Assembly (NCBI RefSeq): GCF_041248615.1
Contig: NZ_CP158426.1
From: Escherichia coli
GTDB taxonomy: Bacteria; Pseudomonadota; Gammaproteobacteria; Enterobacterales; Enterobacteriaceae
Length of the DNA stretch: 64,000 nt
Strand: one strand, 5' to 3'
The translations under genes and the position numbers were made by a program. Below are positions 56,104 through 56,865 of this stretch, one piece after another (within the stretch, counting starts at the first letter, position 1; every line of letters begins with the position of its first letter). The notes beneath the pieces are model-generated. The model did not search any database. It had not been told where the DNA came from and saw only the letters and a list, made by a program, of their open reading frames with translations.

Positions 56104-56429
56104 TAACGGCAATAAACTGTTCACTTCAGTGATATTAAAAAATATGCATCCTCTCCCTTTTTTGTAAGTAATTATTATATCCGTGGGAGAGGAATACACG
56201 CTGTCCGGCAATCAATCAAACTGCGATAAATCATCGGCCAGTAAAATGGAGATAGCCTCCATTCTCGAAAAATTCATACTCTCAGCGAAACCATCACTCA
56301 TCAAGGCGTTTATGGGAGCGTCGCCAATGGCTGCTAACAATGCCAGACTTCCCCGTTGCCGAAATTCCACATACCACAAATGGTCACAGGGATTGGGTGT
56401 TGAAATGATCCGGATGAGCATGTATCTTT

Positions 56430-56452
56430 ATGGTTATGTTATAACATAACAG
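56430..56452 (+). promoter_or_regulatory. Zur box (zinc uptake regulator operator) at ykgM promoter
   Basis: Palindrome GGTTATGTTATAACATAACAGG centred on ATGTTAT/ATAACAT, ending 10 bp before ykgM ATG. Confidence 0.7.
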
Positions 56453-56461
56453 GTAAAAATG

Positions 56462-56725
56462 ATGAAGCCCAATATCCATCCTGAGTATCGTACTGTGGTG
56501 TTCCACGACACCAGTGTTGATGAGTACTTTAAAATCGGCTCGACTATCAAAACAGACCGTGAGATTGAGCTGGATGGCGTAACGTATCCGTACGTGACAA
56601 TTGATGTCTCTTCTAAATCGCACCCGTTCTATACAGGGAAGCTGAGAACAGTGGCATCAGAAGGAAATGTTGCACGATTCACCCAACGTTTTGGTCGTTT
56701 TGTTAGCACGAAAAAGGGGGCATGA
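56462..56725 (+). CDS. ykgM: ribosomal protein L31 paralog, type B (zinc-independent)
   Basis: 87 aa, [23 protein letters not shown]; no CxxC zinc ribbon; AGGT SD. Confidence 0.92.
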
Positions 56726-56865
56726 TGAAAGTCCTTAACTCTCTGCGTACCGCAAAAGAACGCCATCCAGACTGTCAGATTGTGAAGCGAAAAGGACGGC
56801 TATATGTGATTTGTAAATCTAATCCACGTTTTAAGGCCGTTCAGGGTCGTAAGAAAAAACGTTGA
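56725..56865 (+). CDS. ykgO: ribosomal protein L36 paralog (zinc-independent)
   Basis: 46 aa, [50 protein letters not shown] start/stop overlap with ykgM; not in ORF track (under 60 aa). Confidence 0.88.

Follow-up and report, generated by a model that had tools for sequence, protein, structure and literature searches.

The region at 56428-56865 of the window (the whole 64-kb stretch of Escherichia coli DNA that was analysed) is almost certainly the E. coli ykgM-ykgO operon, in which spare, zinc-free versions of ribosomal proteins L31 and L36 are silenced by Zur through a palindromic operator directly upstream. The original prediction of a ribosome remodelling operon for zinc starvation is backed by the RefSeq annotation, by the type-B protein models, by alignment of the products to RpmE and RpmJ, by conservation of the box, and by the genes found beside the same 18-mer in other genomes. 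The finding is correct but already known in full, and the operon is a well-studied and ordinary one. The features of the locus are listed in Table 1.

Table 1. Features of the ykgM-ykgO locus, in window positions.
Feature	Position	Strand	Description
Candidate sigma-70 promoter	56400-56428	+	TTGAAA (56400-56405), 17-nt spacer, TATCTT (56423-56428); from a consensus scan
Zur operator core	56433-56450	.	Perfect 18-bp palindrome GTTATGTTATAACATAAC; two GTTAT and two ATAAC
Shine-Dalgarno-like AGGT for ykgM	56452-56455	+	6 nt before ATG 56462; read from the sequence
ykgM	56462-56725	+	Type B zinc-free bL31B, 87 aa plus TGA stop (56723-56725); RefSeq
Shine-Dalgarno-like AAGGGGG for ykgO	56714-56720	+	Within the 3' end of ykgM
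ykgO	56725-56865	+	Type B bL36B, 46 aa plus stop; RefSeq
Stem-loop, candidate terminator	56914-56954	+	17-bp stem and short U-run (UUUUCC), ~50 nt past the ykgO stop

Genomic context

The sequence from 55900 to 57300 is matched at 100% identity by many E. coli chromosomes and occurs in 5,087 of 5,426 complete genomes. In the genomes with 100% identity, RefSeq gives the gene order ykgR, ykgM, ykgO, a frameshifted ykgL on the opposite strand, and then ecpR-ecpE. The two proteins have the same RefSeq accessions (WP_000803998.1 and WP_000866436.1) in a K-12-lineage (O16:H48) strain, which matches the window base for base from the -35-like hexamer via the Zur box to the start codon. Within the operon there is no difference between the window and ykgM-ykgO with PL31p of E. 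coli K-12; relative to K-12-like strains, the window strain shows only a few base changes farther upstream and a different set of neighbouring genes. Panina 2003 is reportedly the source for the K-12 ykgM-ykgO (L31p/L36p) operon and its Zur operator PL31p.

Several other open reading frames in the vicinity were discarded. The spacer between ykgR and ykgM holds one of 88 aa on the plus strand (56183-56449) and one of 69 aa on the minus strand (56212-56421), and others run antisense across ykgM; all are absent from the RefSeq annotation. Elsewhere in the window, an IS3-family element at ~42470-43797 is missing from the closest reference genome.

Beyond the window, ~19 kb from the locus, that reference genome has a degenerate remnant of ykgR and the 3' end of ykgO. 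There the 3' part of ykgR runs straight into the last 37 nt of ykgO and the region downstream; the promoter, the Zur box and ykgM are gone, as is most of ykgO. One possible, though improbable, reading is a past duplication of the ykgR-ykgMO block in Escherichia, followed by selective deletion of one of the Zur-controlled copies. If true, this duplication and deletion would place the dosage of the zinc-free ribosomal paralogues under selection.

The operator sequence

The palindrome with an ATGTTAT/ATAACAT core that had been noted about 10 bp upstream of ykgM is present, its 3' end separated by 8 nt from the first ATG (56459) and by 11 nt from the annotated ykgM ATG (56462). It had been described as near-perfect; GTTATGTTATAACATAAC is actually perfect over 18 bp. 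Each of its arms is 9 nt long, and it went unreported in an inverted-repeat search with a minimum arm of 10; a direct pattern search and a script confirmed it. It is the sole perfect 18-bp palindrome within the 64-kb window. Some perfect 18-bp palindrome also occurs in 30% of dinucleotide shuffles of the window, so palindromy alone is weak evidence. Allowing up to three mismatches, GTTATGTTATAACATAAC occurs once in the window as against 0.03 times expected.

The operator agrees with the structure-derived Zur motif RxxxYRxxR*YxxYRxxxY at all eight of its constrained R/Y positions (motif from PMC4219657). The older 23-bp Zur consensus GAAATGTTATANTATAACATTTC finds its two best matches in the window here, at 16/22 and 15/22 positions in registers 5 bp apart, the next best site matching at 14. 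The agreement reaches only 16/22 because the operator, as an even palindrome, has a shorter centre, and two registers appear because it is built of two GTTAT and two ATAAC pentamers. As a sequence pattern, this two-register make-up fits the published mode of binding by a dimer of dimers.

Zur boxes resemble Fur boxes in length and in being AT-rich palindromes, and the palindrome could in principle be the operator of some other member of the Fur family (e.g. the iron regulator Fur), in which case the operon would respond to another metal. However, only 10 of the 19 positions of the Fur consensus GATAATGATAATCATTATC agree with the operator, and the occurrences of the operator in other genomes, described below, also bear on this reading.

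Conservation and distribution of the operator

Searched as a 76-bp query, the promoter region has matches of 90-100% identity in 5,057 genomes. The window was aligned with four other alleles from across this identity range; among them were that of a K-12-lineage strain and, at 92%, the most divergent one listed. A block of 22 bp, GGTTATGTTATAACATAACAGG (56432-56453), is invariant in all five of these diverged E. coli alleles, whereas the flanks vary (up to 8% divergence). The substitutions lie directly to either side: on the 5' side they affect the -10-like hexamer and bases 2-3 nt ahead of the box, and on the 3' side they occur 2 nt past the box and in the upstream ATG. At its 3' edge the invariant block overlaps the AGG (56452-56454) of the ykgM Shine-Dalgarno motif.

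Exact copies of the GTTATGTTATAACATAAC 18-mer were sought in one genome per species (298 Gb). At least 120 loci were identified, as against ~4 expected by chance in 298 Gb by our own estimate. All 80 of the loci with listed record titles belong to alpha-, beta- or gamma-Proteobacteria, and several genomes contain multiple copies. Among the matches listed, a gene for L31B and/or L36B starts 11-37 bp from the box at nine loci, including examples in E. albertii, Moritella, Acinetobacter and Morganella.

The genes beside the box were tallied by Pfam scans of 147 neighbouring ORFs (at least 100 aa), again among the matches listed. Most frequent are cobW/COG0523 proteins (27 ORFs) and Fur-family regulators (FUR, 14), followed by ZnuA, ZnuC-like ABC ATPases and TonB-receptor Plug domains (8 each), Peripla_BP_2 (7), FolE2 (5), ZinT (4), DUF1826 (3) and ZrgA (2). 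These neighbours are the canonical zinc-starvation regulon, and the 18-mer is therefore an operator of that regulon, not a chance palindrome or an RNA element specific to one gene. Together with the invariance of the box in E. coli, the zinc genes beside the same 18-mer support the identification of the palindrome as a Zur box. Other proteobacterial members of the Zur regulon (znuABC, zinT, COG0523/zigA-like GTPases, folE2 and znuD-like TonB receptors) carry the identical 18-bp core directly upstream; unlike those of ykgMO, their products serve in zinc acquisition or the replacement of zinc enzymes and are not ribosomal proteins.

The TonB-dependent receptors and Peripla_BP_2 proteins of this tally are often iron-related, which would suit control by another Fur-family regulator. 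However, the neighbours as a whole are dominated by the zinc markers COG0523, ZnuA, ZinT, FolE2 and ZrgA, and a response to another metal seems exceedingly improbable.

The same data bear on whether the palindrome has any protein-binding role at all. The frequency of palindromes in shuffled windows would allow it to have arisen by chance, and a transcript starting upstream of it would fold a hairpin in its 5'UTR, so that the repeat might represent leader structure. Against this, the exact 18-mer precedes unrelated zinc-starvation genes at at least 120 proteobacterial loci, often between divergent genes, and such recurrence implies a shared DNA-binding protein, not a gene-specific RNA structure. 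The box is also constant among E. coli alleles whose flanks vary, and an Rfam scan of 55500-57900 finds nothing at the palindrome. In addition, Zur binding to the operator has been measured, with EMSA and qRT-PCR published (PMC4219657). Chance or RNA structure is thus a barely credible explanation, and the palindrome is treated below as the Zur operator.

Promoter, terminator and translation signals

The hexamers of the candidate promoter show 9 of 12 matches to consensus, although such sites are no commoner in the region than in shuffles. The -10-like TATCTT ends 4 nt before the Zur box, and a GTATCTT or GTATTCT motif is found at the same distance in two close relatives (locus L110 and E. albertii locus L013). 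We infer that the promoter and the transcription start are positioned near the operator.

Downstream of ykgO, a segment of 103 nt (56863-56965) that contains the strong hairpin (56914-56952) has a predicted folding energy of -32.2 kcal/mol (z = -5.76). A simple terminator scan after ykgO returns none, the hairpin failing its rule for the T-run. Fig. 2A of PMC7297116 places a terminator behind ykgO, and the hairpin is probably the terminator of the operon. The only Rfam match within 55500-57900 is to the folP RNA on this hairpin (20.8 bits, E = 0.29; gathering score 99), which was dismissed as chance. The ykgL pseudogene overlaps the hairpin.

Both ykgM and ykgO open with a tandem ATGATG (56459/56462 and 56722/56725, respectively). 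Read from the first ATG the products have 88 and 47 aa, and from the second 87 and 46 aa. Several lines of evidence mark the second ATG as the true start of both genes. RefSeq uses the second ATG in both genes, and position 1 of the Pfam profile falls on residue 2 of the longer forms. In strain GF43 the codon at 56459 is ATA. A single Met start is found in all eight ykgM orthologues and in seven of eight ykgO orthologues, the exception being that of L110 (MMK). The spacing of the Shine-Dalgarno motifs also favours the second ATG; AAGGGGG, for example, lies 4 nt before ATG 56725 and just 1 nt before ATG 56722. Given the ATA codon of GF43 at the upstream ykgM position, the tandem ATGs are unlikely to give minor N-terminally extended isoforms.

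The junction of the two genes reads GCATGATGAAA, and ATG 56725 shares only the A of the ykgM TGA stop (TGATG, an overlap of 1 nt). The original prediction had a 46-aa ykgO starting at the ATGA that overlaps the ykgM stop. The overlap is confirmed, but the start is not: translation from this ATGA (56722) would give 47 aa, and the 46-aa product starts at 56725. As read from the sequence, the overlap and the Shine-Dalgarno motif internal to ykgM suggest translational coupling. Among the orthologue loci compared, the overlap of stop and start is confined to Escherichia. At 46 or 47 aa, the ykgO ORF is under the 60-aa default of the ORF lister and surfaces only at a min_aa of 20.

The encoded proteins

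YkgM matches the Pfam family PF01197 at 87.1 bits and the NCBIfam model NF002462 ("type B L31") at 122.8 bits, against a cut-off of 86. It remains below the cut-offs (70) of the type-A equivalog models NF000612 and NF001809. The protein is identical over all 68 residues of chain D7 in PDB entry 6i7v ("50S ribosomal protein L31 type B"); from this identity to a solved chain and from the literature, YkgM would be expected to occupy the bL31 site of the ribosome. YkgO scores 68.5 bits with PF00444 and 90.9 bits with NF002021 (cut-off 70), and is identical to chain C5 of 6i7v ("L36 2").

For comparison with the zinc-binding forms, RpmE and RpmJ reference sequences were used that match hundreds of E. 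coli ribosome chains in the PDB exactly. YkgM and bL31A (RpmE) belong to the same Pfam family and share 44% identity over aligned residues, but YkgM has a 12-residue insertion and a longer C-terminus, and its four Cys ligands are replaced: C16, C18, C37 and C40 of RpmE align with T17, V19, S50 and S53. As there are no Cys residues in YkgM, the claim that it lacks the zinc-ribbon cysteines of L31 is borne out.

YkgO and bL36A (RpmJ), likewise members of one Pfam family, are 47% identical over aligned residues. YkgO differs in the replacement of C11 by His and of H33 by Phe, in a 3-residue insertion, and in a lysine-rich tail. The zinc ligands of RpmJ, which we take to be C11, C14, C27 and H33, align with H14, C17, C30 and F36 of YkgO. 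Two of the four ligands are kept, HxxC replaces CxxC, and the fourth ligand is gone. H14 was considered as a substitute zinc ligand within HxxC, but this is unlikely; the residue is Ser in one orthologue (L118), and the fourth position is Phe. Both Cys residues are conserved in the orthologues. Given the loss of two of four ligands, and the literature, YkgO would also be zinc-independent. Neither protein contains a CxxC pair, a feature that the original prediction had named as evidence against itself, and the alignment to RpmE and RpmJ that it had proposed has thus been carried out.

The zinc-binding bL31A and bL36A occupy the same ribosomal sites as YkgM and YkgO (literature; PDB 6i7v). YkgM and YkgO are repressed by Zur, in contrast, and are not constitutive.

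Regulation and function

The behaviour of the operator has been examined directly. Gilston et al. 2014 showed that Zur protects ~30 bp at PL31p, that among the four known Zur operators the apparent Kd is lowest for that of L31p (0.025e-18 M^2), and that Zur represses the L31p mRNA 560-fold in vivo as measured by qRT-PCR (PMC4219657). In the work of Aseev et al. 2020, expression of a ykgM-lacZ fusion is negligible in a zur+ strain and rises almost 1000-fold with zur::kan or with the zinc chelator TPEN (PMC7297116). That zur deletion and TPEN each derepress the operon to this extent also argues against a regulator for another metal. Xia et al. 2023 report that calprotectin induces ykgM ~2,500-fold and ykgO ~1,000-fold in E. 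coli Nissle (PMC10410751). The tests of Zur binding, and of a reporter with a zinc chelator, by which the prediction was to be checked are therefore already published on the identical K-12 sequence (PMC4219657, PMC7297116). The possibility that zinc-dependent regulation is lacking, which the prediction had also raised, is contradicted by the dependence on zinc and Zur documented in these studies.

Taken with this published work, the arrangement of the locus suggests the following scheme. When zinc is sufficient, two dimers of zinc-loaded Zur would occupy the operator at 56433-56450 from opposite faces of the DNA. As the operator comes just after the candidate -10 element and spans the probable transcription start, RNA polymerase would be blocked and the operon would be silent. 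When free zinc is low, Zur would lose its zinc and leave the DNA, giving an induction of several hundred- to a thousand-fold. A single mRNA would then yield YkgM (bL31B) and, from the start overlapping the ykgM stop, YkgO (bL36B). Lacking a complete zinc site, both proteins would displace bL31A (RpmE) and bL36A (RpmJ) in the 50S subunit. The swap would keep ribosomes functional when zinc is absent, and is believed to release the zinc bound by the displaced proteins. Repression of rpmE by YkgM via the 5'UTR reinforces the switch.

The operator and genes may be as described and yet serve a different purpose, namely the formation of distinct ribosomes in stationary phase or under stress, together with control of rpmE by an RNA-binding YkgM, and not the sparing of zinc. 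L31p and L36p are more abundant in the ribosomes of stationary-phase cells, and L31p modestly alters low-temperature growth, reading-frame fidelity and processivity (PMC9825181; PMC7297116). Rasmussen et al. 2022 also show that L31p represses L31 through the rpmE 5'UTR (PMC9825181; see also PMC7297116). The role of the displaced proteins as a zinc reservoir, in turn, is reported as "believed" and not as a demonstrated flux (PMC7297116). However, such a purpose is compatible with zinc sparing and does not exclude it, and the regulation runs through Zur and zinc (PMC4219657, PMC7297116). Moreover, L31p and L36p fill the L31 and L36 sites with similar translational efficiency (summarised in PMC9825181). 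Sequence cannot separate the two purposes; we consider distinct ribosomes a serious but rather unlikely alternative, and zinc sparing the preferred reading.

Switches of the same logic are known from other bacteria. In the cases of YtiA/RpmEB of B. subtilis, the alternative ribosomal proteins of Mycobacterium and RpmE2 of Neisseria, a Zur-repressed, zinc-free paralogue replaces a zinc-ribbon ribosomal protein when zinc is limiting, although the gene sets and operator sequences of these C- switches differ from those of ykgMO.

Implications

The ykgMO operon is a textbook example of ribosome remodelling under zinc starvation, and the value of the present analysis lies in correct annotation, not in discovery. 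Two features of the locus matter for annotation in general. ORF tracks with a floor of 60 aa lose real ribosomal protein genes such as the 46-aa ykgO, and tandem ATGs demand care in the calling of starts.

Within the zinc regulon of E. coli, the ykgMO promoter combines the tightest binding of Zur with repression that is among the strongest (PMC4219657). It is already in use in E. coli Nissle as a biosensor for calprotectin and gut inflammation (PMC10410751, PMC12279244). Beyond E. coli, the exact 18-mer GTTATGTTATAACATAAC is a highly specific marker for Zur-regulated promoters across Proteobacteria.

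Features surrounding the ykgMO operon

The codon preceding the annotated ykgM start and the promoter region of ykgM are polymorphic. An in-frame ATG (56459-56461) lies immediately 5' of the annotated start codon, and in strain GF43, which carries a diverged promoter allele, this triplet is ATA. The same allele has TATCCT as its -10-like hexamer, where the window has TATCTT, and a TA just past the Zur box is replaced by CG.

The gene ykgR, which encodes a small membrane protein, precedes ykgM on the same strand, with 358 bp between them. Like ykgO, it falls below the 60-aa threshold for open reading frames, and a Pfam search assigned it to no family. 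The region upstream of ykgR (44400-55530) contains an intact 4.25 kb fdeC adhesin gene, in addition to three aldo/keto reductases, two LysR regulators, an alpha/beta hydrolase and an NADH-dependent flavin oxidoreductase. In K-12 the corresponding region has probably been shortened or rearranged and contains fragments of eaeH as well as IS elements.

Coordinates of features within and beyond the window
Feature	Coordinates	Strand	Description
ykgR	56002-56103	+	small membrane protein gene, 33 aa
ykgL	56900-57125	-	annotated frameshifted pseudogene in the window's lineage
IS3-family insertion sequence	42462-43805	-	1.33 kb
orfA of the IS3-family element	43342-43752	-	HTH_Tnp_1
orfB of the IS3-family element	42479-43384	-	rve integrase core
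Degenerate second copy of the ykgR-ykgMO locus	NZ_CP026723.1: 39421-39650		~11 kb past the window's end

The closest reference genome, NZ_CP026723.1, harbours a second, degenerate copy of the locus, and this copy accounts for the two matches that the locus query returned in each genome record. In this remnant, labelled partial ykgR in RefSeq, a 3' segment of ykgR sharing 90% identity with 56035-56152 is fused directly to the final 37 nt of ykgO and its downstream region (77% identical to 56829-56943). Neither the promoter nor the Zur box is present in the remnant, which also lacks ykgM and the greater part of ykgO.

Other elements in the window

The two reading frames of the IS3-family element overlap. 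Its termini are imperfect inverted repeats of 33 nt, presumably resembling the ends of IS2, and the element is flanked by the direct repeat ACGGAGTG. The element is absent from NZ_CP026723.1, where the counterpart of the insertion site lies within an HTH-domain gene.

The window's best match to the Fur-box consensus (GATAGTGATTATCATTAAT, 25966-25984) agrees at 15 of 19 positions on the plus strand and at 16 of 19 as its reverse complement. An approximate mapping onto the reference places this match within or close to pdeL (yahA), and it could be a chance occurrence in AT-rich sequence.

The probable terminator hairpin and ykgL

An Rfam match to the folP RNA (56878-56979) coincides with the probable terminator hairpin downstream of ykgO. 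Its score of 20.8 bits (E = 0.29) is below the gathering score of 99, and the match is regarded as chance. The hairpin (56914-56952) is overlapped by the 3' end of ykgL, a gene that is intact in a K-12-like strain. Due to this overlap, the conserved feature may be the hairpin rather than the open reading frame.
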